This document shows, piece after piece, positions 2,861 through 18,151 of a stretch of 64,000 nucleotides of DNA (its first letter is position 1; each line of letters starts with the position of its first letter). Source of the DNA: an uncultured Acidobacteriota bacterium (GTDB lineage Bacteria; Acidobacteriota; Polarisedimenticolia; J045). Position numbers and translations under genes: made by a program. Under the pieces are notes generated by a model that searched no databases, was not told the DNA's origin, and was given only the letters and a program-made list of their open reading frames with translations. The DNA is taken from positions 4,992 to 68,991 of the forward strand of contig CAVPCQ010000038.1 of the NCBI GenBank assembly GCA_963702425.1. Direction: 5' to 3'.

Positions 2861-3646
2861 ATGGCGCTTCTCGACGGAAAGTACGGGCTGCTCCTCGGGA
2901 TCGCGAACGAGCGCTCCTACGCCTGGCACATCGCGCAGGCGCTCGAGGAAGCCGGCGCGGAGCTGGCGTTCAACGCCCTGCCCGGCGAGAAGAACGAGGC
3001 CCGCACGCGCTTCGCCGTCGACGCGCTGAACATCCCCGACCCCTGGATCCGTCCCTGCGACGTGGCCCGGGACGAAGACATCGACCGGCTCTTCGAGGCC
3101 TACGCAAAGGATTTTCCGCGGCTCGACTTCGTCGTCCACTCGGTCGCCTTCGCCGACCGCGAGTACCTGCAGCCCGGCAAGTTCATCGAGACCCCGCGGG
3201 CCTCGTTCCTGATGGCGCTGGACATCTCGGTCTACTCGCTGATCGCCGTCGCGCGGCGCGCGCGGCCGCTCCTGGCCGCGGCCGGCGGCGGCTCGATCAC
3301 GACGATGAGCCACTACGGCGGCGACAAGGTCTTCCCGGGCTACAACGCGATGGGCGCCTGCAAGGCGGCGCTCGAGGCCAGCGTCCGCTACCTGGCCGAG
3401 GAGCTGGGCGCGGAGAAGATCCGCGTCAACGCGATCTCCGGCGGGGCGTTCAAGACCCTCGCGGCGTCGGGGATCGGCGGGCTCAAGTCGATGCTCGCCG
3501 AGTCCGAGCGCCGTTCCCCGCTGCGGCGCGGTGTCGAGGGGGTCGACGTCGGCGGGACGGCGGTCTACCTGGCCTCGGAGCTCTCCTCCGGAGTCACCGG
3601 CGAGACGATCTTCGTCGACTGCGGGATGAACATCCTCGGCGCCTGA
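2861..3646 (+). CDS. fabI: enoyl-[acyl-carrier-protein] reductase (NADH), FabI type
   Basis: 261 aa, with AGGAGG 5 nt upstream of ATG 2861. Motifs seen: GIANERSYAW, the SDR catalytic Y-x6-K (YNAMGACKAALE), and RVNAISGG..KTLAASGI. It is hidden inside shadow ORF 1064..3646. Confidence 0.85.
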   Translation: MALLDGKYGLLLGIANERSYAWHIAQALEEAGAELAFNALPGEKNEARTRFAVDALNIPDPWIRPCDVARDEDIDRLFEAYAKDFPRLDFVVHSVAFADREYLQPGKFIETPRASFLMALDISVYSLIAVARRARPLLAAAGGGSITTMSHYGGDKVFPGYNAMGACKAALEASVRYLAEELGAEKIRVNAISGGAFKTLAASGIGGLKSMLAESERRSPLRRGVEGVDVGGTAVYLASELSSGVTGETIFVDCGMNILGA

Positions 3647-3677
3647 ACCTCGGGCGCAGTCGGGGGACGGCGGCAGG

Positions 3678-6600
3678 ATGGTCCCGACCCAAGCGGTCCT
3701 GGCGTGGCTCCACCGCACCTTCGCGCTGCGCCGCGGGGAGGGCCGCCGCGCCCTGCTGCTGACCGTCTACCTGGGCGTCGTGATCGCCTCGTACCTGATC
3801 CTGAAAGCGGTTCGCGACGCGCTCTTCATCGCCGCCTTCAGCGCGATGAAGCTGCCCTACGTCATCTTCGGCATCGCGCTCCTGGTGGGCGTGTTCGTCG
3901 ACGTCTACATCAGGATCTCGCGCCGCGTCCCGGCGGCGCGGCTGATCACCTGGACGCTGGCCCTGTTCATCTCGAATCTCCTGGCGTTCTGGGTCCTGGC
4001 GCGGATGGGCTTCACCTGGCTCTTTCCGCTGCTCTATATCTGGGTCGGCTTCTTCGGGGTCGCGGCGCCGGTCCAGGTCTGGACGCTGGCCAACGAGGTC
4101 TTCACGACGCGCGAGGCGAAGCGCGTCTTCGGCATCGTCGGCGGCGGCGGGATCACGGGGGCGATCATCGGCGGCGCGATCGCCAGCGTGCTGGCGATCG
4201 AGATCGGGACCGAGCAGCTGCTGCTGGTGGTCGCGCTGCTGCTGGTGGCCTGCATCGTCCTGGTGCACTGGATCGCGCGCTACCGGTTGCCGGTGCTGCG
4301 CGAGCGGCGGGATGAGGTCCTCCCGTGGAACCTGGCGATCAGCGCGCGGCGGGTGCGGAGTTCCCCGCACCTGCGGGTGCTGGCGGCGCTGGTCTTCGTC
4401 GGCGCGCTGGCCACGACGATCGTCGATTTTCAGTTCAAGGCGGCGGCCGGCGGTGCGGGATTCACCCGCGACGAGCTGACGGCGTTCTTCGCGGCGACCC
4501 TGTCGGCGATGTCGCTGGTCGGCCTCGTCGTCCAGCTCGGGATCGTCCGGCCCGTGCTCCGGTCGCTCGGGTTGGGGGCGGCGATCCTGGTCCTGCCGTT
4601 CTCGCTGCTGCTCGGCGAGTCGACGCTGATCGTGCTGGGCAGCCTGTGGGCCGCGGTCTTCATGAAGGCCAGCGACGGCGCGTTCAAGCACTCGATCGAC
4701 CGCTCGAGCAAGGAGCTGGCCTACCTGCCGGTCCCGGTCGAGATCAAGTTCCAGGTCAAGTCGGCGATCGACATGGTGCTCGATCGGCTGGGGGACGCGA
4801 CGGGCGGCCTGGTCCTGCTCGTGCTCGCGACCTGGCTCGGCTTCTCGATCGTCACGATCGGCTGGGTCAACCTTGCTCTGCTCGGGGCCTGGCTGTTGCT
4901 GGCGCGCCGGCTGCGGCAGTCGTACGTCGACGAGCTGGCGACCTCGATCGGGGCCAAGAGCGCGCGCGCCAGCTACGAGTTGGACGCCTCGCTGATCGAC
5001 GCCGACGCGCGCGCCGGGCTGCGGCGCGCGCTGACCGCCGCCGACCCGCAGACGATCGGGATCGCGCTCGAGCTGGCGTCGCTCTCCCCCGGCAGCGACC
5101 TCGAGCCGGAACTGGCCCAGCTCGCGCAGCACGAGAGCCCGGAGGTCCGCGCGCGCGTGCTGGGTGTGTTCCTCGCACCGGGCGGGTCCGGGCTGCCGCC
5201 CGAGCTGCTCGACCGGCTCGAGGAGGCCGACCACGACCTGCTCGCCAAGGGGCTCGACCTGGTGCTGGCGACGACGCCCGAAGAGCGCCGCGAGCGAGCC
5301 ACGGCGCTGCTCGGCAAGCGTCGGCCCGACACGCAGGGCGTGATGCTGGCGCTGCTGGTGCGGCGGCTCGGCCCCGACTTCGCGCCGGTCGCGGCGCACG
5401 TGCTGGACGGGATGATCGCGGCCGACGCGCCGGCCTCGCTGCGTCGCGCCGCGGCCTCGGCGCTGGGGATGCTCCCCGCCGACTCGGCCCTGGCCGGCAA
5501 GCTCGACGCGCTGCTCGACGACCCCGAAACGGAGGTGCGGGCCCAGGCGGCAGAGAGCGCGGGGCGCCTCGGTCGCAGCGACCTGGTCCCGCGCCTGGTC
5601 GAGCTGCTCGGCTCCCACCGCACGCGACCGCCGGCGCACCGGGCGCTGGTGGCGCTCGGGGGGGAAGCGATCCCGGCTCTCGGGGCAGCCCTCGCCCGGC
5701 AGCGGGGCACCCCCGCTTCGGGCTCGTCGCCGGAGTCGGCGGCCCTGCGGCACGTCCCGGCGGTGCTGCGCGCGATCGGCTCCTCGGGCGCGATCGCGCT
5801 GCTGGTCGACAGCCTCGGCCACCCCGACGAGTTCGTGCGCGAGGCCTCGATCCACGCCGTCGAGCGGTTGCGCGAGCGCGACCCGGAGAACCTGCTGGCG
5901 GGCCCGGAGCTGGTCGATCCCGAGATTGCCGCCGACGGCGAGCGCCACGCCTGGATCCTCGGCCACTACGCGGCAGCCGCGGCCGAGACCGGCCCGGTGG
6001 CCGAGTTCCTCGCCGCGCGGCTGCGCGAGCACCTGGCGCGGGTGCGGCGCCGCGTCCTGTCGCTGCTCCGGATGCGGCTCGGGCCGCGCTCGGCCCAGGC
6101 CGTGGCCCGCGGCCTCGAGTCGGGACGCCCCGACCTGCGCGACAACGCGCTCGAGCTGCTCGACTCGGCCCTGCCGCGCTCGCTGCGCGCCTCGGTCGTG
6201 CCGATGCTGGAGGAGGAGCCGGCGGCGGTGCTCGAGATGCGTGCCGGGGAGCCGATCGGTTACCCTTCCCCGCGCCGCGCGCAGCTGCTGCGCGAGCTGG
6301 CGCTCGGGGCCGACCCGTGGCTCGCGGCCGCGGCGCTGCGGGTGGCCGCGGAGAGCGGGCTGGGCTGGGTCGAGGAGGTCGCGTCGCGCCGCCGCGACCA
6401 CGCGGCCACGGTCCTGGGCGAGGAAGCGCGGCGCGCGATGCGGAGGCGGGGTGGAGCCGAGGGGGAGGGACCGGGCGTGACGATGTCGCTCCTCGATCGC
6501 GCCGTGGCGCTGCGCGCGGTCGACGCCTTCCGCGGCGTCACCACCGATCAGCTCGCGCTGATCGCCGCGATCGCGGCCGAGCAGGTCCTTCCCGAGGGGA

Positions 6601-6893
6601 GCCTGCTGTTCGAGGAGGGGGCGCTCCCCGACAGCCTGTTCGTGGTCCTCGACGGCACCGTGTCGCTCATGCGCCAGGGCGCCCCGATGGGCACCGTCGC
6701 CGCCGGAGAAGCACTCGGCACATGGTCGCTGCTCGACGACGAGCCGCGCTCCGCGCGCGCCGTCGCGGCCACGCCGGTCCGGGTGCTGACGATCGAGCGC
6801 GAAGACTTCTACGACGTGCTCGCCGAGCACAGCGAGATCAGCCGCAGCCTGATGCGCGACCTCGTCGGACGGCTGCGCGAGCTGGCGCACTGA
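3678..6893 (+). CDS. multidomain membrane protein: TLC/Npt-type (ATP:ADP antiporter-like MFS) transporter domain + HEAT-like repeats + C-terminal cyclic-nucleotide-binding domain
   Basis: 1071 aa. The N-terminal ~430 aa are polytopic, with the LRRGEG..LL..YL..I.SYLILKAVRDALF opening typical of Npt1/Npt2-family carriers. The middle is Ala/Leu/Arg-rich helical repeats (..ESPEVRARV.., ..DPETEVRAQAAESAGRLG.., ..HPDEFVREASIHAVERL..). The C-terminus (~6510-6890) carries GSLLFEEGALPDSLFVVLDGTV...AAGEALGTWSLLD..PRSA.A.A, a cNMP-binding fold. Confidence 0.7.
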   Translation: MVPTQAVLAWLHRTFALRRGEGRRALLLTVYLGVVIASYLILKAVRDALFIAAFSAMKLPYVIFGIALLVGVFVDVYIRISRRVPAARLITWTLALFISNLLAFWVLARMGFTWLFPLLYIWVGFFGVAAPVQVWTLANEVFTTREAKRVFGIVGGGGITGAIIGGAIASVLAIEIGTEQLLLVVALLLVACIVLVHWIARYRLPVLRERRDEVLPWNLAISARRVRSSPHLRVLAALVFVGALATTIVDFQFKAAAGGAGFTRDELTAFFAATLSAMSLVGLVVQLGIVRPVLRSLGLGAAILVLPFSLLLGESTLIVLGSLWAAVFMKASDGAFKHSIDRSSKELAYLPVPVEIKFQVKSAIDMVLDRLGDATGGLVLLVLATWLGFSIVTIGWVNLALLGAWLLLARRLRQSYVDELATSIGAKSARASYELDASLIDADARAGLRRALTAADPQTIGIALELASLSPGSDLEPELAQLAQHESPEVRARVLGVFLAPGGSGLPPELLDRLEEADHDLLAKGLDLVLATTPEERRERATALLGKRRPDTQGVMLALLVRRLGPDFAPVAAHVLDGMIAADAPASLRRAAASALGMLPADSALAGKLDALLDDPETEVRAQAAESAGRLGRSDLVPRLVELLGSHRTRPPAHRALVALGGEAIPALGAALARQRGTPASGSSPESAALRHVPAVLRAIGSSGAIALLVDSLGHPDEFVREASIHAVERLRERDPENLLAGPELVDPEIAADGERHAWILGHYAAAAAETGPVAEFLAARLREHLARVRRRVLSLLRMRLGPRSAQAVARGLESGRPDLRDNALELLDSALPRSLRASVVPMLEEEPAAVLEMRAGEPIGYPSPRRAQLLRELALGADPWLAAAALRVAAESGLGWVEEVASRRRDHAATVLGEEARRAMRRRGGAEGEGPGVTMSLLDRAVALRAVDAFRGVTTDQLALIAAIAAEQVLPEGSLLFEEGALPDSLFVVLDGTVSLMRQGAPMGTVAAGEALGTWSLLDDEPRSARAVAATPVRVLTIEREDFYDVLAEHSEISRSLMRDLVGRLRELAH

Positions 6894-7380: not shown

Positions 7381-8561
7381 CCGAGCCGCTCGCGGCTTGC
7401 CAGGAGCTGTTCGAGGGGCACGTCGACCCCGGTGCCCTGCTCGATGCCGGCCTCGCCGTCCTCGTGCAGAACGCCGCCGCGCGCGGGGTGTTCGGCGAAG
7501 GCGTGGGCCGGCCCTGCTACGCGCTGCACTTCGGCCGCGAGGCGCCGTGTCCCGGCTGCCGCGCCGCGGAAGTGACCCACGACGGCGCGGCGCTGCGCTG
7601 GATGATGGAGGTTGCCGGGGAGTTTCCAGGGGCGGCGCGATCCGGGGTGTGGGAGGTGACACTCATCCCGGTGAAGGATGCCGCCGGGCGCGTCACCCGG
7701 TTCGTCGAGCTGCTGCGCGACGCGACGCTGAGCCTCGGGCTGGAGCAGCATCTGATCGAACTGGCGCGGGGCCTCGACCTCGAGATTGCCCGTCGCACCA
7801 CCGAAGCCGGGGAGTTGACCCAGCGCGCGCGCGCACTGCAGGCCGAGATCGAGCGCCTCACCGAGGAGGAGGCGGATCTGCTCCGGACCGAGCGGATGGC
7901 GGCGCTGGGGCGGGTCGTTGCCGGCGTGGCGCACGAGATCCACACCCCCCTCGGCGCGATCCTCTCGACGCTGGAGATGGTCCGGGCGCGACTGGCCGAC
8001 GGGCGGGCCGACGAGCTGAGCGAACTGGTCGAACTGATGCAGGACGCCGGCGAACGGATCCGTAAGGTGGTCCGCACGCTGCGCGTCTTCTCGCGCCTCG
8101 ACGCCGCGCAGATCGAGACGGTGGACATCCACGAGGGGCTGGAGTCGTCGCTGCACCTGCTGGCGCACGAGATGCAGCCCCGGGTGGCGGCCCTGTGCGA
8201 GTACGGCGAGACCCCGCGGGTCCGCTGCCGGCCGGACCAGATCAACCAGATCTTCCTGAATATCCTGCGGAACGCCGTGCAGGCGATCGAAGGACAGGGC
8301 ACCATCACGGTGCGTACGTTCGCGCACGAGGGTGCGGCCGTGGTCGAGATCGAGGACACCGGGCCCGGGATCGCCGCCGAGAACCTGGAGCGGGTCTTCG
8401 AGGCCGGGTTCACGACCAAACCCCGCGGCGAGGGGACGGGCTGGGGCCTGTCGATCTGCCGGCGGATCGTGCACGAGCACGGCGGTGAGATCGCCGTGCG
8501 CAGCACGGTCGGGCGCGGCACGACGTTCCGCATCACGCTGCCGATCGAGGGACCGCCATGA
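7377..8561 (+). CDS. sensor histidine kinase (PAS-like N-terminus with four Cys, HisKA, HATPase_c)
   Basis: GTG 7377 overlaps the receiver gene's stop (GTGA). Motifs seen: H-box RMAALGRVVAGVAHEIHTPLGAI, N-box FLNILRNAVQA, G1 EDTGPGI, G2 GTGWGLSI. The N-terminal segment contains RPCYALHFGREAPCPGCRAAEV. The track ORF (7251) starts inside the upstream gene. Confidence 0.8.
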   Translation: MTEPLAACQELFEGHVDPGALLDAGLAVLVQNAAARGVFGEGVGRPCYALHFGREAPCPGCRAAEVTHDGAALRWMMEVAGEFPGAARSGVWEVTLIPVKDAAGRVTRFVELLRDATLSLGLEQHLIELARGLDLEIARRTTEAGELTQRARALQAEIERLTEEEADLLRTERMAALGRVVAGVAHEIHTPLGAILSTLEMVRARLADGRADELSELVELMQDAGERIRKVVRTLRVFSRLDAAQIETVDIHEGLESSLHLLAHEMQPRVAALCEYGETPRVRCRPDQINQIFLNILRNAVQAIEGQGTITVRTFAHEGAAVVEIEDTGPGIAAENLERVFEAGFTTKPRGEGTGWGLSICRRIVHEHGGEIAVRSTVGRGTTFRITLPIEGPP

Positions 8562-10555
8562 GTTGCCCGCCCCGACGCCTCCCGTCCCTGCTCTCCTTCG
8601 TGCTCACCGCCGCGGCGGTGGGTATCGCGACGGTCCCGGCTTCGCGCGCCGGCGCGCCCGGAGACCCTCCGACGTGGCGCTACGCCGGGGTCGAGCGCGT
8701 CGTCGCGATCGGCGACGTCCACGGCAGCTACGAGCCGCTGGTCGAGGTGCTGCGCGCCGCGGGGCTGATCGACGAGGCGCTGGCCTGGAGCGGCGGCAAG
8801 GCGCACCTCGTGATGCTCGGCGACCTCGTCGACCGCGGTCCGAAGGAGCGCGAGGTGCTGGACCTCGTCATGCGGCTCGAACGCGAGGCGCCGGAAGCCG
8901 GCGGCCAGGTGCACGTGCTGCTCGGCAACCACGAGGTGATGAACCTGGTCGGCGACCTGCGCTACGTCTCGAAGGCCGGCTACGCCGAGTACGCCGAGGC
9001 GACCCCGCCCAGGGAGCGCGAACAGGCGCTGGCCCGCTTCATGCGGTCCGGCGGCGGCGCGGAGACCGGCCCCGAGGGGGTGCTGCCGCGGTTCAACGAG
9101 CTCTACCCGCCCGGGTACTTCGAGCGACAGAAGGCCTTCTCGGCGAGCGGCGCCTACGGCCGCTGGCTGCTCTCGAAGTCCTTCATCCTCGTGATCGACG
9201 ACGTCGCGTACGTGCACGGCGGCCTGCCGCCGAGCGTGGCCTCGGAGGGCGCGGAGGCACTCAACCGGTCGCTGATGCAGGAGATCCAGGCCTACATCAA
9301 GGCGCGCGAGACGCTGATCGAGGCCGGTCTGCTCGACCCGGAGACGAGCTTCGTCGAGTCGTTCCAGCGGGTCGGGCAGAAGGTGGAAGAGGCCGAGGCC
9401 AAGGGGCAGGCGCTGCCGGAGGCGTCTGCGAAGGCGGCCGAGACCCTGCTGGCGAGCGCGGGCGCCTACGCCTTCAGCAATGAGAACCCGTTCTGGTACC
9501 GCGGCACGTCGCTCAACCCCGAGCCGCAGGAACTGCCGGCCTTCGAGGCGGCGCTGGCGAAGCTGGGCGCGAAGTCGGTGGTCGTCGGACACACCACCAC
9601 CCCCGGCGGGCGGATCACCTCGCGCTTCGGCGGGCGCCTGCTGCGCGCGGACACGGGGATGCTGAGCGAGGTCTACCGCGGCCGCGGCGCGGCGGTCGTG
9701 GCGGAGGGCGGGACGCGGCGGACGCTCTACCCCGGCGACCCGGCGGACACCAAGCCCGTTCCCGAGACGAAGGAGGAGCCGGGTCCGATCGTCGCCCAGG
9801 GGATGCCTGACGCAGCGCTCGAGACCTTCCTGAAGACCGCCGACGTGGTCAAGATCGAGGACATCGGCTCCGGCATCACCCGGCCCAAGCGGCTGTCGCT
9901 GCAGAAGGACGGCGTTTCACGGCGCGCGGCGTTCAAGTACGTCGACGAGACGTTCGACTCGACGGTGCGCATCGCCGGCCGCCTGGAGATGCAGTTCAAC
10001 GACCGTTACATCTACGACGTCGCGGCCTACCGGCTCGACCGGCTGCTCGAGATGGACATGGTGCCGGTCGCGGTCGAGCGGACGGTCGACGGTACCGCGG
10101 GGGCGGTGCAGGACTGGATCGAGAACGCGATCGACGAGGGGCGGCGTGTGACCGAGAAGCTCGAGCCCTATGACGCCGAGTCCTTCAAGCGCCAGACCCA
10201 GGTGATGCGCGTCTTCGACGCGCTGATCTACAACGCGGACCGCAACCAGGGGAACATCCTCTACACCCCCGGGGACTGGAAGCTGCACCTGATCGACCAC
10301 ACGCGCGCGTTCCGGCTCGGCACGGGGCGCCCGCCGGGCCTCGTCGACGTGCCACTCGTGATCGAGCCCGAGCTGCGCGTGCGGCTCGCGGCACTGAACG
10401 AGGAGCAGTTGAAGTCGGCCCTCGGTGGCCTGCTGAGCAACGCGCAGATCGGCGCGATCCTGAAGCGCCGCGACAAGCTGCTGGCGGAGACGGTGCCGAA
10501 GGCGGCGCCCAAGGCACCGGCCAGCGCCGCGCCGGCCGTGAAGCGCGCCTCGTAG
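8558..10555 (+). CDS. secreted fusion protein: calcineurin-like (Shewanella-like/PPP-type) metallophosphoesterase + C-terminal PI3/PI4-kinase-like (protein-kinase-fold) domain
   Basis: ATG 8558 overlaps the kinase gene's stop (ATGA). Signal peptide: LLSFVLTAAAVGIATVPASRA. Phosphoesterase motifs: AIGDVHGSY, MLGDLVDRGP, LLGNHEVMN, VHGG, VVVGHT. The C-terminal ~225 aa (about 9800-10477) carry FDALIYNADRNQGNILY (10217-10261) and LIDHTRAF (10289-10312). These resemble the catalytic and activation segments of type II PI4K-like kinases. Confidence 0.7.
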   Translation: MSCPPRRLPSLLSFVLTAAAVGIATVPASRAGAPGDPPTWRYAGVERVVAIGDVHGSYEPLVEVLRAAGLIDEALAWSGGKAHLVMLGDLVDRGPKEREVLDLVMRLEREAPEAGGQVHVLLGNHEVMNLVGDLRYVSKAGYAEYAEATPPREREQALARFMRSGGGAETGPEGVLPRFNELYPPGYFERQKAFSASGAYGRWLLSKSFILVIDDVAYVHGGLPPSVASEGAEALNRSLMQEIQAYIKARETLIEAGLLDPETSFVESFQRVGQKVEEAEAKGQALPEASAKAAETLLASAGAYAFSNENPFWYRGTSLNPEPQELPAFEAALAKLGAKSVVVGHTTTPGGRITSRFGGRLLRADTGMLSEVYRGRGAAVVAEGGTRRTLYPGDPADTKPVPETKEEPGPIVAQGMPDAALETFLKTADVVKIEDIGSGITRPKRLSLQKDGVSRRAAFKYVDETFDSTVRIAGRLEMQFNDRYIYDVAAYRLDRLLEMDMVPVAVERTVDGTAGAVQDWIENAIDEGRRVTEKLEPYDAESFKRQTQVMRVFDALIYNADRNQGNILYTPGDWKLHLIDHTRAFRLGTGRPPGLVDVPLVIEPELRVRLAALNEEQLKSALGGLLSNAQIGAILKRRDKLLAETVPKAAPKAPASAAPAVKRAS

Positions 10556-10606
10556 CCGGCGTCCCGAGCCGGCCCGCGCGGCCGCCGCGGGTCCAGGAGG
10601 CTGTCC

Positions 10607-11647
10607 GTGAGCGACCGCGCACGCCCGTGGCGACGGTTGGCGCTGAACACGCTCCTCGTGGTCGCGTCGGTGGCCATCGCGCTCGGGCTTGTCGACCTCC
10701 TGCTGATCGTCACGCACACCCCTGTCCACGGACCGATCTGGGAGGCTCAGGGGCTCTTCCGCCTCGATCGGGAGCTGATCTACTCGCTGGTCCCCGGTAA
10801 GAAACGGGTCTGGCGCACCGACGAGTTCGCGGAGCAGGCCTCCATCAACCGGGAGGGGCTGCGGGGCGCCGAGCTTCGGGAACGACGGGGGATCGACTCG
10901 CGCATCATCGTGACCGGCGACTCCGTCGTCTTCGGCCACGGCGTCGGCGACGGAGAGGCCTTTCCGAAGCAGCTCGAGGCGATCTTCGCGTCCGAGGGCC
11001 GCAACGTCGAGGTGCTCAACGCGGGCGTGAAAGGCTACGGCACCGACCAGTCGTTCAAGTCCTTCGATCGTCGCCTGCAGGCCCTGAAACCGGATGTCCT
11101 GGTGTTCGCCGTCAACACCAACGACGTGGCCGACAACATCCGGCAACCGCTCTATACCGTGCAGGACGGCCGGCTTCGCGAGCTCGACGCAACGCGCAAC
11201 CCGTTCTACCGGGTCGTCTGGCTCGATTCGCACCTCCCGGGGGCCGTCCGCCGCACCGACCTGTACGGGCGGCTCGTCACCCGGCTGCTCCGCGCCGACT
11301 GGGATCGCGCGCTTCCCGACAGCGACCCCGATCGGCTCAAGGCGTGGTCCCGGGAGAAGGTCGTGCTGGAGATTGAGTCGCTTCACGACCGGTCCCGGTC
11401 GGCCGGCTTCCGGCTCGTCGTGCTGGGGCTCCCCAGCACGGCGCCCAACGCGTTCCGATGGCTGCGGTCGAGCCTGCCCGAGGGCGTCGATTTCCTCGAC
11501 GCGAACGAGGTCGAAGCCTGGGCGAGCGAACCGTCCCGGTGGTTCCTGAACGACCGGACTCACCTCACCGTGGCCGGCAACGAGCGGCTCGCCCAGCGGC
11601 TCTACGCCCACCTGCTCGACACGGAGAGCCCCGCCACCGCACCATAG
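10607..11647 (+). CDS. SGNH/GDSL-family hydrolase with N-terminal membrane anchor
   Basis: 346 aa, with AGGAGG 6 nt upstream of GTG 10607. TM helix: LALNTLLVVASVAIALGLVDLLLIV. Block I is IIVTGDSVVFGHG. Later blocks (AGVKGYGT; FLNDRTHLTVAGNERLA) fit the SGNH layout. Confidence 0.6.
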   Translation: MSDRARPWRRLALNTLLVVASVAIALGLVDLLLIVTHTPVHGPIWEAQGLFRLDRELIYSLVPGKKRVWRTDEFAEQASINREGLRGAELRERRGIDSRIIVTGDSVVFGHGVGDGEAFPKQLEAIFASEGRNVEVLNAGVKGYGTDQSFKSFDRRLQALKPDVLVFAVNTNDVADNIRQPLYTVQDGRLRELDATRNPFYRVVWLDSHLPGAVRRTDLYGRLVTRLLRADWDRALPDSDPDRLKAWSREKVVLEIESLHDRSRSAGFRLVVLGLPSTAPNAFRWLRSSLPEGVDFLDANEVEAWASEPSRWFLNDRTHLTVAGNERLAQRLYAHLLDTESPATAP

Positions 11648-11702
11648 GACAGCCGTCGCGTCGAATGCGTGGTGGCGAGGCCGGGCCAACTCCGGGGTGG
11701 AC

Positions 11703-13543
11703 ATGACGGTGCACGACTCGCCAGCCTTCATCCTCGGGATCTCGGCCTTCTACCACGATTCCGCCGCCTGTCTCGTGCAGGATGGCCGGATCGTCGCTGC
11801 GGCCCAGGAAGAACGCTTCACGCGCCGGAAGCACGACGCGGGATTCCCGCGGCACGCGATCGACTACTGCCTGCGCGAGGCGCGCATCGGCCCGGACCGG
11901 CTGACCGCGGTCGCCTTCTACGACAAGCCGTGGATCAAGTTCGAGCGGCTGCTCGAAACCTACCTCGCGTTCGCGCCCGGCCGGTCGTGTCCTCCTTCCT
12001 GAAGAGCATGCCGCTCTGGCTGAAGCAGAAGCTCTGGATCGGCGACCTGATCGCGCGCGAGCTGGGCTACGACGGCGATCTGCTCTTCCCGGAGCACCAC
12101 CAGTCGCACGCCGCGTCCGCCTTCTTCCCGTCTCCCTTCGAGCGAGCCGCGTTCCTGACGATGGACGGGGTGGGGGAGTGGGCCACCGCTTCCTGGGGCG
12201 TCGGGCACGGCAACCGGGTCGAGATCTCGCACGAGCTGCGCTTCCCGCACAGCCTCGGCCTGCTCTACAGCGCCTTCACCTACTACACCGGCTTCAAGGT
12301 CAACTCGGGGGAGTACAAGGTGATGGGGCTAGCGCCCTACGGCGAGCCCCGGTACGCCGGGCTGATCTACGACCACCTCCTCGACCTGCGCGAGGACGGC
12401 TCGTTCCGCCTCAACATGGAGTACTTCAACTACTGCCAGGGCCTGACGATGACCTCGGAGCGGTTCCACCGGCTCTTCGGCGGCCCGCCGCGGGCGGCGG
12501 AGTCCGAGGTCACGCAGCGCGAGATGGACCTCGCCCGCTCGCTGCAGGACGTCACCGAGGAGGTCATGCTGCGGATGGCGCGCCACGTGCGGAAGGCGAC
12601 CGGGGAGCGGAACCTGTGCCTCGCCGGCGGCGTCGCGCTCAACTGCGTCGGGAACGGGAGAATCCTGCGAGAGCGAGTGTTCGACCGGCTGTGGATCCAG
12701 CCCGCCGCCGGTGATGCCGGAGGCGCCCTCGGCGCCGCGCTCTTCGCCTGGCACCAGGTCCGCGGCGAGCCCCGCCGCGCGGACCCGGGTCGCGACAGCC
12801 AGTCGGGCTCGTACCTCGGACCCGCGTTTCCCGGCGATGCGATCCGGCAGTGGCTCGACGGTGCGGGCATTCCGTACCGCACGCACTCCCCGTCCGAGAT
12901 CCCGGGCCTCGCGGCCGAACTGATTGCGCAGGAGAAGGTCGTGGGGTGGTTCTCCGGGCGGATGGAGTTCGGGCCCCGGGCGCTGGGGGCCCGGAGCATC
13001 CTCGGGGACGCCCGCAGCCCGAAGATGCAGTCGGTCCTGAACCTCAAGATCAAGTTCCGGGAGTCGTTCCGCCCCTTCGCGCCATCCTGCCTGGTCGAGG
13101 ACGTGTCGGAGTACTTCGAGCTGGAGGTCGAGTCGCCGTACATGCTCCTCGTCGCGCCGGTCGTCGAGACGCGACGGCTCGCGATGAGCGCGGAGCAGTC
13201 GGCGCTGTTCGGGATCGAGAAGCTCAACGTCCCGCGCAGCGACATCCCCGCGGTGACGCACGTCGACTACTCGGCGCGCGTGCAGACGGTCGACGCCCGC
13301 GATCACGCGCAGTACCACGAGCTGATCCGTGAGTTCAAGCGGCGGACCGGGTACGGGGTCATCATCAACACGTCGTTCAACGTCCGCGGCGAGCCGATCG
13401 TCTGCACGCCGCAGGATGCCTACCTGTGCTTCATGCGGACGCAGATGGACGCGCTGGTGCTGGAGGACTGCGTGCTGCTCAAGGAAGAGCAGCCGCCGCT
13501 GAAGGACGACGTCGACTGGAGATCGCAGTATGGCCTCGACTGA
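11703..13543 (+). pseudogene. carbamoyltransferase (NodU/CmcH family), reading frame interrupted by a -1 shift near 11976-11992
   Basis: The first ~100 aa (frame of 11697..12002) read MTVHDSPAFILGISAFYHDSAACLV...FERLLETYLAFAP. The remaining ~515 aa (frame of 11669..13543) read ..SFLKSMPLWLKQKLW..HHQSHAASAFF..GEYKVMGLAPYG... Together they are the two halves of one enzyme. The first frame hits TGA at 12000. The switch lies in gcgcccggccgg (C/G runs). This may be an assembly indel. Confidence 0.8.
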
Positions 13544-13958
13544 GGGGATCGGCCTGCCGGCGAGGCCCGCGACGCGCAGCGGCCGCGAGCTGCGGACGTT
13601 CGGGCTGGTGATGGCGGGAGCGTTCGGCGCGCTGGGTGGCCTGGCGGCGTGGCGCGGCCGGTCCGCCGGGCCGGTCCTGCTCGGCGTGGCGGCCGCCTTC
13701 CTGCTGCTCGGGCTGGCCTTGCCGCGGCTCCTCCGGCCCGTCGAGAAGGCCTGGATGGCGGTCGCGCGGGTGATGGGCGTCGTGATGACGCACGTCATCC
13801 TGACGCTCTTCTACTACCTCGTGATCACACCGTTCGGAATCGCGATGCGGATCGCCGGCCGCGACCCCCTGGGGCTGAAGGCGGCCCCGGCGCGCGAGTC
13901 CTTCTGGGAAGCGGTCGATCCGCAGGGATCGGCCTCCCGCCCGGACAAGCCCTATTGA
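13530..13958 (+). CDS. SxtJ-family small membrane protein
   Basis: 142 aa, overlapping the carbamoyltransferase stop by 14 nt. It has two or three hydrophobic helices and the ..LL.P.EK.WM..A..MG...T.VIL...YYLVITP.G...R..G.DPL pattern I associate with SxtJ proteins found next to carbamoyltransferases. Confidence 0.6.
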   Translation: MASTEGIGLPARPATRSGRELRTFGLVMAGAFGALGGLAAWRGRSAGPVLLGVAAAFLLLGLALPRLLRPVEKAWMAVARVMGVVMTHVILTLFYYLVITPFGIAMRIAGRDPLGLKAAPARESFWEAVDPQGSASRPDKPY

Positions 13959-13989
13959 GCCGGAGCCAGCGGCGGGAGAGAATCCGGAC

Positions 13990-14148
13990 ATGCCGGCTGT
14001 GAAGAACCTGTGGATGATCTGGGACTTTCTCCGGGTCCGGAAGAAGTTCTGGCTGCTCCCGATCGTGGCGCTGCTCCTGCTCTTCGGGCTGCTGATCGTC
14101 CTGACCGAGGGCTCGGCGCTCGCGCCGTTCATCTACACGCTGTTCTGA
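13990..14148 (+). CDS. DUF5989-family small membrane protein (52 aa); not in the supplied ORF track
   Basis: My own translation is MPAVKNLWMIWDFLRVRKKFWLLPIVALLLLFGLLIVLTEGSALAPFIYTLF*. This is the W.FLR.RKKFWLLPI....LL.G.LIVL..GSA.APFIYTLF pattern characteristic of DUF5989, which normally follows SxtJ. It is too short for the track's length cut-off. Confidence 0.6.
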   Translation: MPAVKNLWMIWDFLRVRKKFWLLPIVALLLLFGLLIVLTEGSALAPFIYTLF

Positions 14149-14201
14149 CCGGGCGGCCGCCGGGAGAGGTCCCCCGGGCGGTTTCCAAGGAGGCGAATCA
14201 C

Positions 14202-14852
14202 ATGAGAAGGACGACGATCGTCCTGTCGCTGGGTGTTCTGCTGTTTGCCGCCTGCGGTCCGCGCGAGGACGCGAAGGCCACCGCCCCCGCGTCCCGCGAG
14301 CCGGCGCCACCGGCCGCCCCGGCGCTGGCAACTCCGCCCCCGGCCGCGCCCGCCGGCTTCGACAAGACGCTCGAGCTGCAAGGGATCACCTTCCACGTCA
14401 CCTGCCCGAACGGCTCGTCGCTCAACCAGGTGACGATCACGCCGGCCGGCCTCGAGATCGACAACTCGGCGATGGTGCGCGAGGCGGACGGCACGGTCGT
14501 CGGGGCGGAGATCGCCGACCTCAACGTCGACGGGTCGCCGGAGCTCTACGTCTACGTCCAGTCCGCCGGCAGCGGCTCGTACGGCTCGCTCGTGGCGTTC
14601 TCGGCCAACAACAAGAAATCCCTGAGCGACATCGTCCTGCCGCCGGTCGCCGCCGACCCGAAGGCCTCGAAGGGCTACATGGGCCACGACGAGTTCGCGG
14701 TCGTCGAATCGACGCTGGTGCAGCGCTTCCCGATCTACCGCGAGGGGGACGCGAACGCGCAGCCGAGCGGCAGGACGCGGCAGATCCAGTACAAGCTGAA
14801 GGCCGGCGAAGCGGGGTGGGTCCTCGAGGCGGACAAGATCGTCGAGTACTGA
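14202..14852 (+). CDS. lipoprotein of unknown function
   Basis: AAGGAGG lies upstream of ATG 14202. Lipobox: LSLGVLLFAAC. A Pro/Ala linker is followed by a beta-rich domain (..ADLNVDGSPELYVYVQSAGSGSYGSLVAF..GYMGHDEFAVVE..). The track ORF 14010 starts too far upstream, overlapping the DUF5989 gene. Confidence 0.6.
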   Translation: MRRTTIVLSLGVLLFAACGPREDAKATAPASREPAPPAAPALATPPPAAPAGFDKTLELQGITFHVTCPNGSSLNQVTITPAGLEIDNSAMVREADGTVVGAEIADLNVDGSPELYVYVQSAGSGSYGSLVAFSANNKKSLSDIVLPPVAADPKASKGYMGHDEFAVVESTLVQRFPIYREGDANAQPSGRTRQIQYKLKAGEAGWVLEADKIVEY

Positions 14853-15714: not shown

Positions 15715-18151
15715 TCAGAACGCACCCACCGCCACCTTGTAGAACGCCAGCACCGGCCCCGAGCCGTCCGCGCCGACGACCCAGGCGACGCCGGGGTTGC
15801 GGCTGTAGCCGTACGCGATCGTCGCGCTCGACGGCAGCGCACGCGAGAAGAGCAGCGTGATCGTGGCCCCGCTCGCGGTCTGAGAGCTTGGCTGCACCGG
15901 GACCGCGCCGTCGTAAGCGCGGAACAGGCCGGGGATGCCGCCGGTCACGTTCTTGTCCCAGCGCACCTCGATCTGCGTGCGCGCCCCGTCGCTGAACTTC
16001 GCTGCGACCAACTTCGGCACCTGGACCGCCGGCTGCCCGTACGAACCGGCGCGCACCACCCGCGCCAGCCGCACGCCCGCGGTCTTGTAGCCGTCCACGC
16101 TGAGGTGGATCGAGTCCGAGCGCGGCTGGTCGATCAGCGGGATCACGCCGGCGAGGGGATCGAGCCCCTGCCGGCGCTGCGCCTCCTGGATCGGCAGCCA
16201 GGTCTCGAAGTCCTCGGTCAGATAGGTCGCCAGCTGGCAGTTGCCGAAGAAGAGGCTGGGGCTGCCGAGATCGGTGCGCAGGTTCGCGACCAGCGCGCGG
16301 AGGTCGGCGAGGTAGAGGTCGGTCCCGCGGCCGGCGTCCGACTCGCCCTGGTACCAGAGCGCGCCGCGGATCGGGTGAGCGTAGCCCTGCGCCCGGACGC
16401 GCGAGACCGCCGATCCGTAGAGCGTGCCGCGGTTGAACGGGTCGGCCGCGTTGCGCTGCCACTGGCTGTAGAGATTGGTCCCGCCGAGCGGGGCCGGAAT
16501 GATCGCTACCGGCACGCCGACCGTTCTCTCGATCTCCTTGCCGAAGCGGAGCATCAGCGTGTGGAGCGGGGCCTCCTCGCTGACGCGATCGACCTGGTCC
16601 GTGCCGTCGTCCATCGGCTCGCGGGCGCGCTTCCAGGCATAGTCGTTGCCGAACAGGTGCACGCGATCGATCGGCGGCTCGGCCGGTTCGAGCGAGCCGG
16701 AGTAGCCCGACATGTTCGACTGGCCGATCGCCAGGAAGACGTCGCCGACCGCGATCTCCGTCACCGTGTCGCTGCCCAGCACCGTCCCGGCCGCGACGTC
16801 GACGAGTCGCGCCTCGAGGTCGTAGTTGCCGCCCGCCGGGACGGCCTCGAGCGCGAAGGACGCGGTGGCGCCCGCGGGAGCGGCCGAGAGCGGGAAGGCG
16901 TGGTCGGCCCAGTCGAAGCCGGGCAGGGGGGCGCCGTTCGTGCTCACGACGACCCGCACCTCCAGCCGCGCCGCACCGTCCGCGCGGTAAGCGACCGGCA
17001 CCGGCAGCGGGGCGCGCCCGTCCGGTCCGCGCTGGAACAGCTTCCACTCGACGAGGCCGTCGTGCGCCCGGAAGATCGCCAGCGCCGCGGCCGGCAGCGC
17101 CTTCTCCGCGGTGACGCGCAGCAGCGGGCGCCGCCCGTCGACGAGGTCCGAGAGGCCGAGGCCGCGCCCGAACAGGCGGTGATCGTCGGCGATCGTGAAG
17201 ACGCCGACGTCGAGGTCCCAGCCCGTGCCGTTCCAGCGATCGAGGCGAAGCGTCGACTGCGTCCCGAAGTCCTTCGCCAACCGCAGGCGCATCCGGCCCG
17301 GCGCGCCCAGCGAGGCCTGCCCGAGCGCCGTGAACTCGCGGCCGCGCCGCACCCACGCGAACGCGGTGCCCGTCGCGTCGACGCGGAACAGCACCCCGCC
17401 GCCGGCGTTCTCGGCGTAGCTCCCCTCGTTCCAGAGGTTGATCTCGAACTGGGCGGCCAGCGAGGTCGTGTCGAGGTAGGCGACCTGCGCCCGTTGCGGG
17501 CCGTCCTGGGGCAGGCGGTCGAAGACGTCGACGCAGCCCTGGCCCGAGCCGTCGTACGACACGGCGAGGTCGCCCGCGACGTCGCGCACCGCGAAGGTCG
17601 CGTTGACCGCGCCGCGACTGCGTCATGTCGGCCGGGCGCTGGCCCGGAAGGTCACCGTCGAAGGTGTAGGTCTTCGGGTCGCAGGCGTCGCCCAGCCCGT
17701 CGGCGTTCTGGTCGGCCTGCGACGGGTTGGTCGCGCCGGGGCAGTTGTCCCGGTCGTCGCGCACGAGGTCGCCGTCGTCGTCGGCGCAGCGCACGGCGGG
17801 AGCGCGCGGGGTGCCGTCGGAGGCGTCGCCCAGGGACCCCTCGCCGTCGGAGTTCCAGGCTGCGACGAGATAGGAGAAAAGCACTCCGGGGGTGTCGGGG
17901 TCGGCGGCCGACAGGTCGGAGGTCCGGAAGACGAGGCACGAGAGGTCGGCCCCGTCCGCACGTGCGCCGCGGTAGAGGTCGTACCGCTCCGCCCCGGCGA
18001 CCGGGTCCCAGCGCAGCGTGGCGCGGTCGGGATCGACGCGCAGCGTCGGGCCGACCTCCGGGGGGCGCTGGGCCCGCGCGGCGGGCGAACCGAGCGTGCC
18101 TGCGAGCAGGAGCGCAGCGCAAGCCGTACGAGCCAGGCGGACCGCGACCAT
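15715..18151 (-). pseudogene. secreted sialate O-acetylesterase-like (SASA/DUF303, SGNH) enzyme with N-terminal FN3-like module and TSP3-like Asp-rich repeat; +1 frame disruption near 17600-17622
   Basis: ATG 18151 has GGAGG 5 nt upstream. Signal peptide: MVAVRLARTACAALLLAG..ARAQ. Asp-rich repeat: DDDGDLVRDDRDNCPGATNPSQADQNADGLGDACD. The frame then changes (...PADMTQSR | GAVNATFAVRDVAGD...) into track ORF 15715..17589, which carries AIGQSNMSG and LWYQGESD. The second frame has TGA at 17623-17625, so the shift must lie downstream of that. Confidence 0.75.

Follow-up and report, generated by a model that had tools for sequence, protein, structure and literature searches.

The 64-kb window analysed here, meaning the whole stretch of DNA under study (G+C content about 72%), comes from an Acidobacteriota-like metagenome-assembled genome (MAG). 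On its plus strand, between positions 10607 and 14148, open reading frame (ORF) calling finds a cassette of four genes, which encode an SGNH/GDSL hydrolase, a NodU/CmcH/TobZ-type O-carbamoyltransferase (hereafter CT) divided between two reading frames, a membrane protein of the SxtJ family, and a DUF5989 protein. The cassette is a local copy of a conserved four-part module, and we lean towards a reading in which a cytoplasmic CT works with SxtJ and DUF5989 as membrane partners and with an outward-facing SGNH enzyme, on an acceptor that is membrane-linked or exported. The features of the cassette are as follows.

10607-11647, plus strand: SGNH/GDSL hydrolase of 346 amino acids; Lipase_GDSL_2 match, N-terminal signal-anchor helix, predicted extracytoplasmic catalytic domain
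11703-12002, plus strand: CT 5' fragment; Carbam_trans_N match, ATG start at 11703 with GTG 11697 as an alternative, premature TGA at 12000-12002
11973-11992, plus strand: frameshift site, reading GCGCCCGGCCGGTCGTGTCC; two surplus nucleotides relative to orthologues
11987-13543, plus strand: CT 3' fragment of 518 amino acids, with GTG start at 11987 in the source assembly; remainder of the Kae1-like domain and the YrdC-like C-terminal domain
13530-13958, plus strand: SxtJ-family membrane protein of 142 amino acids with three predicted transmembrane helices; PF19588
13990-14148, plus strand: DUF5989 protein of 52 amino acids with a single transmembrane helix; PF19451

The two CT reading frames extend over 11697/11703-12002 and 11669-13543, the latter being read from about 11987. 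The CT stop (13543) and the SxtJ start (13530) overlap by 14 nt, and a gap of 31 nt separates the SxtJ stop from the start of the DUF5989 gene, which has a GGGAGA Shine-Dalgarno sequence about 8 nt upstream. These coordinates, the overlap and the gap agree with the original prediction, made earlier from this DNA, and the 52-residue gene is present with exactly the sequence quoted there; at that length a default ORF cut-off of 60 amino acids would hide it. Between 8.4 and 14.2 kb, coding-type G+C content at third codon positions (GC3) is confined to plus-strand ORFs, and the minus-strand ORFs at 9917-11731 and 12329-13798 were dismissed on this basis as antisense artefacts of GC-rich DNA. Neither a promoter nor a terminator turned up when the region from 8.4 to 15.5 kb was scanned for consensus sequences.

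The cassette proteins

All Pfam family matches of the cassette proteins exceed the curated cut-offs. The SGNH hydrolase matches Lipase_GDSL_2 (1.4e-11, 45.7 bits against a cut-off of 32.9) and keeps SGNH blocks I, II, III and V as GDS104-106, N138/G140, N172-D173 and H319, all of them invariant or almost invariant across 26 homologues. In its AlphaFold2 (AF2) model, with a predicted local distance difference test score (pLDDT) of 91.5, the N-terminal helix occupies residues 7-35 and is preceded by four Arg. The protein is thus predicted to be an N-terminally anchored hydrolase or transferase; the membrane anchor proposed in the original prediction is borne out by this helix, and Ser106, Asn172/Asp173 and His319 are conserved. 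Model and fold comparison with the Protein Data Bank (PDB) confirm the SGNH fold, with CgnD (8a2n) as the best match, followed by TesA, Axe2 and PatB; in a profile search, residues 226-338 in the C-terminal half matched AlgJ (1.3e-10) and AlgX (5.9e-8). NCBIfam returned weak sub-threshold matches only, to the Leptospira LA_2490 and LA_2486 GDSL families.

The CT is covered by three profile matches distributed over the two frames. Positions 2-86 of Carbam_trans_N are found in the frame 11697-12002 (7.3e-20, 72 bits), while positions 124-346 of the same profile (5.1e-73, 247 bits) and Carbam_trans_C (2.5e-72, 242 bits) are found in the frame 11669-13543. The catalytic and metal-binding motifs FYHDS, EHHQSHAAS and GPRALGARS are all encoded, the first of them in the 5' fragment, and their positions are invariant in an alignment of 24 homologues. 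Orthologous proteins begin MT(E/V)HDSPA. The full-length relatives in the PDB are GdmN, the novobiocin carbamoyltransferase (NovN-type) and TobZ, with E-values of 1e-87 to 1e-74. Profiles and motifs together place the CT among the NodU/CmcH/TobZ-type O-carbamoyltransferases, and this family assignment stands despite the frameshift.

Profile matches for the two small membrane proteins had been named beforehand as a point on which the original prediction would stand or fall, and both were found above the curated Pfam cut-offs. SxtJ matches PF19588 (2.2e-14, 54.4 bits against a cut-off of 24.4). Its AF2 model (pLDDT 84) has helices at residues 18-41, 46-63 and 65-108, after which comes a conserved tail, GRDPL...SYW...SRPDKPY; a PDB fold search with this model gave no significant match (best E 0.9). 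DUF5989 matches PF19451 (9.6e-23, 80.4 bits against a cut-off of 27), and a search of 1.8 billion proteins finds 2603 matching clusters (50% identity) at E<=1e-3. NCBIfam has no model for either protein, and a literature search on DUF5989, PF19451, PF19588 and IPR045781 found no papers. Judging by the 165-bp size of sxtK and its position after sxtJ (PMC2679770), DUF5989 is probably the counterpart of SxtK.

Recurrence of the module across bacteria

At least 595 relatives of the CT came up in a survey with one genome for each species, and from these 80 loci in more than 15 phyla were kept. They span Acidobacteriota, Bacteroidota, Ignavibacteria, Nitrospirota, Planctomycetota, Omnitrophota, Gemmatimonadota, Parcubacteria, Rhizobiaceae and others, and the CT is conserved across phyla at 60-75% identity. 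Partners were counted with profiles built from the window proteins and iterated over six-frame ORFs of these 80 loci, which had been selected by their CT. SxtJ accompanies the CT in 77 of the 80 and adjoins it in 75, and DUF5989 is found in 56; conserved linkage with carbamoyltransferases, the other test set beforehand for the original prediction, is therefore observed for both small proteins. DUF5989 is genuinely missing downstream of SxtJ in about 20 loci. A member of the SGNH family lies within 6 kb of the CT in 40/80 loci and adjoins it directly in 28, in 24 of these on the same strand. The commonest arrangement is CT-SxtJ-DUF5989 (28/80), followed by CT-SxtJ (17/80), CT-SxtJ-DUF5989-SGNH (8 (+2) of 80) and the order of the window, SGNH-CT-SxtJ-DUF5989 (6 (+2) of 80).

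The SGNH protein belongs to a recognisable partner family. With the window protein as sole query, phmmer finds the partner SGNHs in 13 distant loci, and those in loci with the sxt-like gene order are matched at 6e-14 to 1e-3. Conversely, the partner-SGNH profile applied to the whole window matches the cassette gene only, despite a SASA-type esterase at 15.7 kb. The original prediction had described the SGNH gene as preceding the trio. It does so here, and the survey refines the statement: the SGNH enzyme is no incidental neighbour and is a recurrent fourth member of the module, as its frequency near the CT and its fusions to DUF5989 indicate.

Two such fusions, P0143 and P0145 (about 527 amino acids each, from different sources), consist of an N-terminal anchor, an SGNH part matching GDSL_2 and ALGX, three hydrophobic helices and a C-terminal DUF5989 domain, and P0143 is directly preceded, at its locus (L083), by the 3' end of a CT gene. 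Their predicted helix count is consistent with an SGNH domain facing outward and a DUF5989 N-terminus facing inward. The possibility that the three-helix linker is a SxtJ was rejected, as it has no detectable likeness to that protein (E 1.8). At two further loci (L008 and L082), CT and SxtJ occur in a single ORF with all three Pfam domains; the P0143 and P0145 fusions are more robust than these. A separate arrangement is seen in a Binatia MAG (L037:2607-7812), where two DUF5989 and two SxtJ-like matches lie upstream of one CT in the order K-(J)-K-J-CT, which suggests local duplication of the small membrane genes.

Among 140 immediate neighbours of the module, glycosyltransferases are the commonest, with 13 (10 GT2 and 3 GT4). 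Within 6 kb of the module, GT4 occurs at 11 loci, NAD-dependent epimerases at 6, AsnB-type amidotransferases at 5 and UDP-glucose dehydrogenase at 4.

The carbamoyltransferase frameshift and flanking genes

No uninterrupted reading frame covers both CT domains in the window, since a stop intervenes at 12000-12002. The frameshift that the original prediction had noticed near 11.98 kb is genuine in this sequence: in a DNA alignment with orthologues, two surplus nucleotides lie at about 11978-11984, within GCGCCCGGCCGGTCGTG. Deleting one G and one T restores an ORF of 1839 nt and 612 amino acids, and the repaired protein reads LAFAPAGVSSFLK there, identical to the relative L085 at the same point. 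The call in the source assembly (P0004, 518 amino acids) is 100% identical to the CT 3' fragment and lacks the N-terminal FYHDS motif.

Close relatives allow the lesion to be placed. Intact CTs of 610-612 amino acids are found in L001 (Acidobacteriota MAG GCA_025456445.1; 89% amino acid identity), L002 (a JGI metagenome; 88%) and L090 (93%), all with the same layout as the window, including the 14-nt overlap and the 31-nt gap. The CT of L085 (ERZ25039503 contig_62847, 3.27 Mb; 95.4% nucleotide identity) is unbroken at the site of the window's frameshift, and L001, L002 and L085 all lack the two nucleotides. A further contig, L089, whose SGNH is 98% identical, stops 87 nt into the CT, short of the frameshift site.

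The CT of L085 has a separate lesion of its own (L085:11041-12936), one surplus C at L085:12260, and a C-terminal gene of 235 amino acids is all that is called there. The histidine kinase and SASA genes are likewise fragmented on that contig, and the breaks look like long-read indel noise, not decay shared with the window.

Between the window and L085, the ratio of nonsynonymous to synonymous substitution rates (dN/dS) is 0.126 for the CT overall (0.05 upstream of the shift and 0.15 downstream of it), 0.15 for SxtJ and 0.32 for SGNH, values that point to purifying selection. The window CT has no further lesion. The frameshift is private to this assembly, and the lesion is either an assembly error or a very recent mutation, because dN/dS is low, there is no second lesion and the relatives are unshifted. 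As sequenced, the module should be inactive, because the truncated CT product lacks the invariant FYHDS motif. Two ways in which the broken gene could be functional were considered and rejected. Programmed frameshifting is contradicted by orthologues that are unshifted at the site, and no slippery heptamer of the form X XXY YYZ was seen on reading the surroundings. As for a functional split CT, the break cuts through the Kae1-like domain, and no ribosome-binding site precedes the GTG at 11987.

Several genes flank the cassette. The neighbours shared in synteny are common to close relatives only and comprise a response regulator, a histidine kinase, a Metallophos/kinase-like protein, a PliI-like lipoprotein and a SASA esterase. 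Upstream on the plus strand, 3630-6893 encodes a protein of 1088 amino acids with a membrane domain resembling the TLC ATP/ADP transporters or the major facilitator superfamily (MFS), HEAT repeats and a C-terminal cyclic-nucleotide-binding domain, after which come the response regulator and the histidine kinase. Directly upstream of SGNH, 8558-10555 (plus strand) encodes 665 amino acids of unusual architecture, with an N-terminal calcineurin-like (ApaH-like) phosphoesterase domain and a C-terminal PI3/4-kinase/HipA-like region of the SCO1664 family; it is syntenic in L001, L002 and L085.

On the other side, 41 nt downstream of DUF5989, a lipoprotein-like gene at 14190-14852 (plus strand) with a strong AAGGAGG ribosome-binding site matches PliI (5.8e-9), which inhibits I-type lysozyme in the periplasm; only L001, L002 and L085 have the gene in synteny. 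A PliI-like gene beside an AlgJ/PatB-like SGNH could hint at a link with the cell wall, an association confined to close relatives. Convergent with the cassette, 15715-17589 (minus strand) encodes 624 amino acids with a SASA domain (sialate O-acetylesterase-type carbohydrate esterase). This second esterase near the module is syntenic in close relatives and has no match to the partner-SGNH profile.

Known systems, proposed mechanism and alternatives

The cassette has its closest described likeness in the saxitoxin (sxt) clusters of Raphidiopsis/Cylindrospermopsis raciborskii T3, Dolichospermum circinale and Aphanizomenon. These contain sxtI (1839 bp, carbamoylation), sxtJ (405 bp) and sxtK (165 bp), after which comes sxtL (1281 bp), a GDSL lipase proposed to be a decarbamoylase (PMC2679770, PMC2684587, PMC2885083). 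Four families thus stand in a row in sxtI-sxtJ-sxtK-sxtL as they do here, with SxtK and SxtL matched by order and size. The length of sxtI equals that of the repaired CT gene, sxtJ compares with 429 bp for SxtJ in the window and sxtK (about 54 amino acids) with 159 bp for DUF5989, and the SxtI motif GPRALGRS resembles GPRALGARS here. The two differ in gene order, as SGNH lies upstream of the CT here and the GDSL lipase comes last in sxt clusters, and in host, an Acidobacteriota-like MAG as against cyanobacteria. Pfam scans of about 30 large window ORFs found none of sxtA, which is polyketide synthase (PKS)-like, sxtG (amidinotransferase) or sxtB/S/U. As of 2026, SxtI, SxtJ and SxtK are just 'hypothesised to work in conjunction' (bioRxiv 10.64898/2026.06.11.731795).

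Other relatives share single parts. TobZ (3VEN), GdmN (7VX0) and the novobiocin carbamoyltransferase (9S2T) have the same two-domain build as the CT, Kae1-like plus YrdC-like; they are soluble antibiotic-tailoring enzymes whose identity to it is low, compared with 60-93% inside the module clade. None of the three is known to have a SxtJ or DUF5989 partner. The periplasmic SGNH O-acetyltransferases AlgJ/AlgX and PatB have the SGNH fold, the membrane anchor and the outward topology predicted for the cassette enzyme, which differs from them in a TesA-like N-terminal half and in having no MBOAT or AT3 partner: the window scans turned up no MBOAT or Acyl_transf_3 protein, and there is none either in the five neighbour clusters outside the module that recur most often or in the 25 families commonest among immediate neighbours.

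CgnD from the crocagin cluster, which makes a peptide that is synthesised ribosomally and modified post-translationally (RiPP), is the best structural match of SGNH (PDB 8A2N; E 1.5e-9, TM-scores 0.56/0.64, 18% identity). It is a soluble, slow leader peptidase, whereas the cassette SGNH is predicted to be anchored and no RiPP genes were found in the window scans. The crocagin cluster encodes a carbamoyltransferase, CgnI, besides CgnD; CgnD turnover is slow, and carbamoylation might come before cleavage (PMC10070186). CgnD/CgnI is in this respect a third setting in which an SGNH enzyme is paired with a NodU-type carbamoyltransferase, beside SxtL/SxtI.

The trio is also present in annotated replicons. 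On plasmid PALBO1 of Paludisphaera borealis, RefSeq labels its members 'carbamoyltransferase', 'SxtJ family membrane protein' and 'DUF5989 family protein'; the gene order is unlike that of the window, and the trio adjoins a hexapeptide sugar O-acetyltransferase in place of SGNH. On its 5' side lie exosortase/EpsI genes, a polysaccharide biosynthesis tyrosine autokinase and a WecB/TagA/CpsF glycosyltransferase, an exopolysaccharide (EPS) locus. Plasmid pSymB of Sinorhizobium meliloti 1021 (482.2-486.4 kb) carries all four parts, a divergent SGNH gene (about 482.2-483.5 kb) and then SxtJ-like (483.9-484.4 kb), DUF5989 (484.39-484.56 kb) and CT (484.5-486.4 kb); its SxtJ homologue is annotated 'hypothetical' and missed by Pfam, and is found by hhalign with a probability of 98.6%. 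The original prediction proves accurate, and its interpretation holds for the most part. The cassette is a further member of a known, already annotated and functionally uncharacterised module, and no new kind of system.

In the mechanism that we propose, the CT would convert carbamoyl phosphate and ATP into carbamoyl-AMP and then transfer the carbamoyl group onto a hydroxyl, as is known for its enzyme family. SxtJ, whose translation is usually coupled to that of the CT and which is in some cases fused to it, would keep the CT at the inner face of the membrane, with DUF5989 as part of the same small membrane complex. With the CT tethered in this way, the acceptor would be exported or associated with the membrane, a lipid-linked or secreted glycan being the most plausible candidate. 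On the outer side, the outward-facing SGNH domain would take off or reposition an acyl or carbamoyl group.

A number of observations weigh against this proposal. Little of the module's neighbourhood is conserved, as its 140 immediate neighbours represent 160 Pfam families. Among the roughly 30 large ORFs scanned in the window there is no glycosyltransferase, flippase or polysaccharide-export gene, so that the envelope glycan or lipid named as target in the original prediction stays plausible and weakly supported. Nor need the acceptor be bound to a membrane, since the one proposed in saxitoxin biosynthesis is small and soluble. Half of the loci lack SGNH and 30% lack DUF5989, and the two are therefore either accessory, not essential, or encoded elsewhere. 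The CT-SxtJ 'fusions' of L008 and L082 could be indel errors in the overlap region, because they are MAG-derived and the two genes normally overlap. We infer the equivalence of SxtK with DUF5989, and of SxtL with this SGNH family, from gene order and size, and the topology of SxtJ and DUF5989 is predicted from helices and charges.

The possibility that the cassette is a decaying relic, its CT a true pseudogene and the whole no longer working in this organism, deserves to be taken seriously, and we think it rather unlikely. It would account for the frameshift and the premature stop at 12000-12002, and the CT of the nearest relative, L085, is broken as well, down to the called C-terminal gene of 235 amino acids. 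The lesion of L085 is nevertheless a different one (the surplus C at L085:12260), and the other fragmented genes of that contig, histidine kinase and SASA, suggest sequencing noise. The window CT has no second lesion and a low dN/dS on both sides of the shift, SGNH, SxtJ and DUF5989 are intact, and the CT is intact in the three other relatives L001, L002 and L090; the mutation, if genuine, would be very recent.

Two further explanations concern the working module, and both seem improbable to us. In a trans-envelope relay, the CT would load the carbamoyl group at the inner face, SxtJ and DUF5989 would pass it (or a carrier with the group on it) through the membrane, and the outward-facing SGNH, as terminal transferase, would attach it to an extracytoplasmic polymer. 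An analogy is offered by the AlgI/AlgJ/AlgX and PatA/PatB systems for O-acetylation: the C-terminal half of SGNH matches the acetyltransferases AlgJ and AlgX, PF16822 (ALGX) is found in partner SGNHs, and PatB is among the fold matches. P0143 and P0145 join SGNH to three transmembrane helices and DUF5989, and the CT is fused or coupled to SxtJ. However, SxtJ and DUF5989 have about four helices in total, far below the acyl-translocating MBOAT/AT3 proteins, half of the loci have no SGNH, no chemistry is known for moving carbamoyl across a membrane through a Ser-enzyme intermediate, and the best fold match of SGNH, CgnD, is a hydrolase. Slightly less probable again is a saxitoxin- or crocagin-like tailoring unit for secondary metabolites, in which a soluble natural product would be carbamoylated by the CT, with SGNH as decarbamoylase or protease. 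Its name-giving examples come from saxitoxin clusters (PMC2679770), and the closest solved SGNH fold comes from the crocagin cluster with its carbamoyltransferase CgnI (PMC10070186). Yet the roughly 30 large window ORFs scanned include no PKS-like SxtA, amidinotransferase, RiPP precursor or dioxygenases, the module has unconserved neighbours and a spread over more than 15 phyla that takes in Parcubacteria and Rickettsiaceae, and the 60-75% identity of the CT across phyla argues for one common acceptor, not diverse products.

The preferred reading is that of the four-part module acting on a membrane-linked or exported acceptor. A bolder form, that the four proteins are a previously undescribed trans-envelope carbamoylation machine, the carbamoyl counterpart of the O-acetylation systems for polysaccharide and peptidoglycan, strikes us as improbable; if true, it would also explain why SxtJ and SxtK go with SxtI. 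The module is very widespread, with at least 595 species-level genomes and 2603 DUF5989 clusters, its CT is unusually conserved, SGNH is a frequent fourth member, and the fusions tie a cytoplasmic half to an outward-facing one. Genetically tractable carriers exist, above all S. meliloti with its pSymB. With the acceptor identified, thousands of genes labelled 'hypothetical' would gain a function and one step in the making of the toxin would become clearer.

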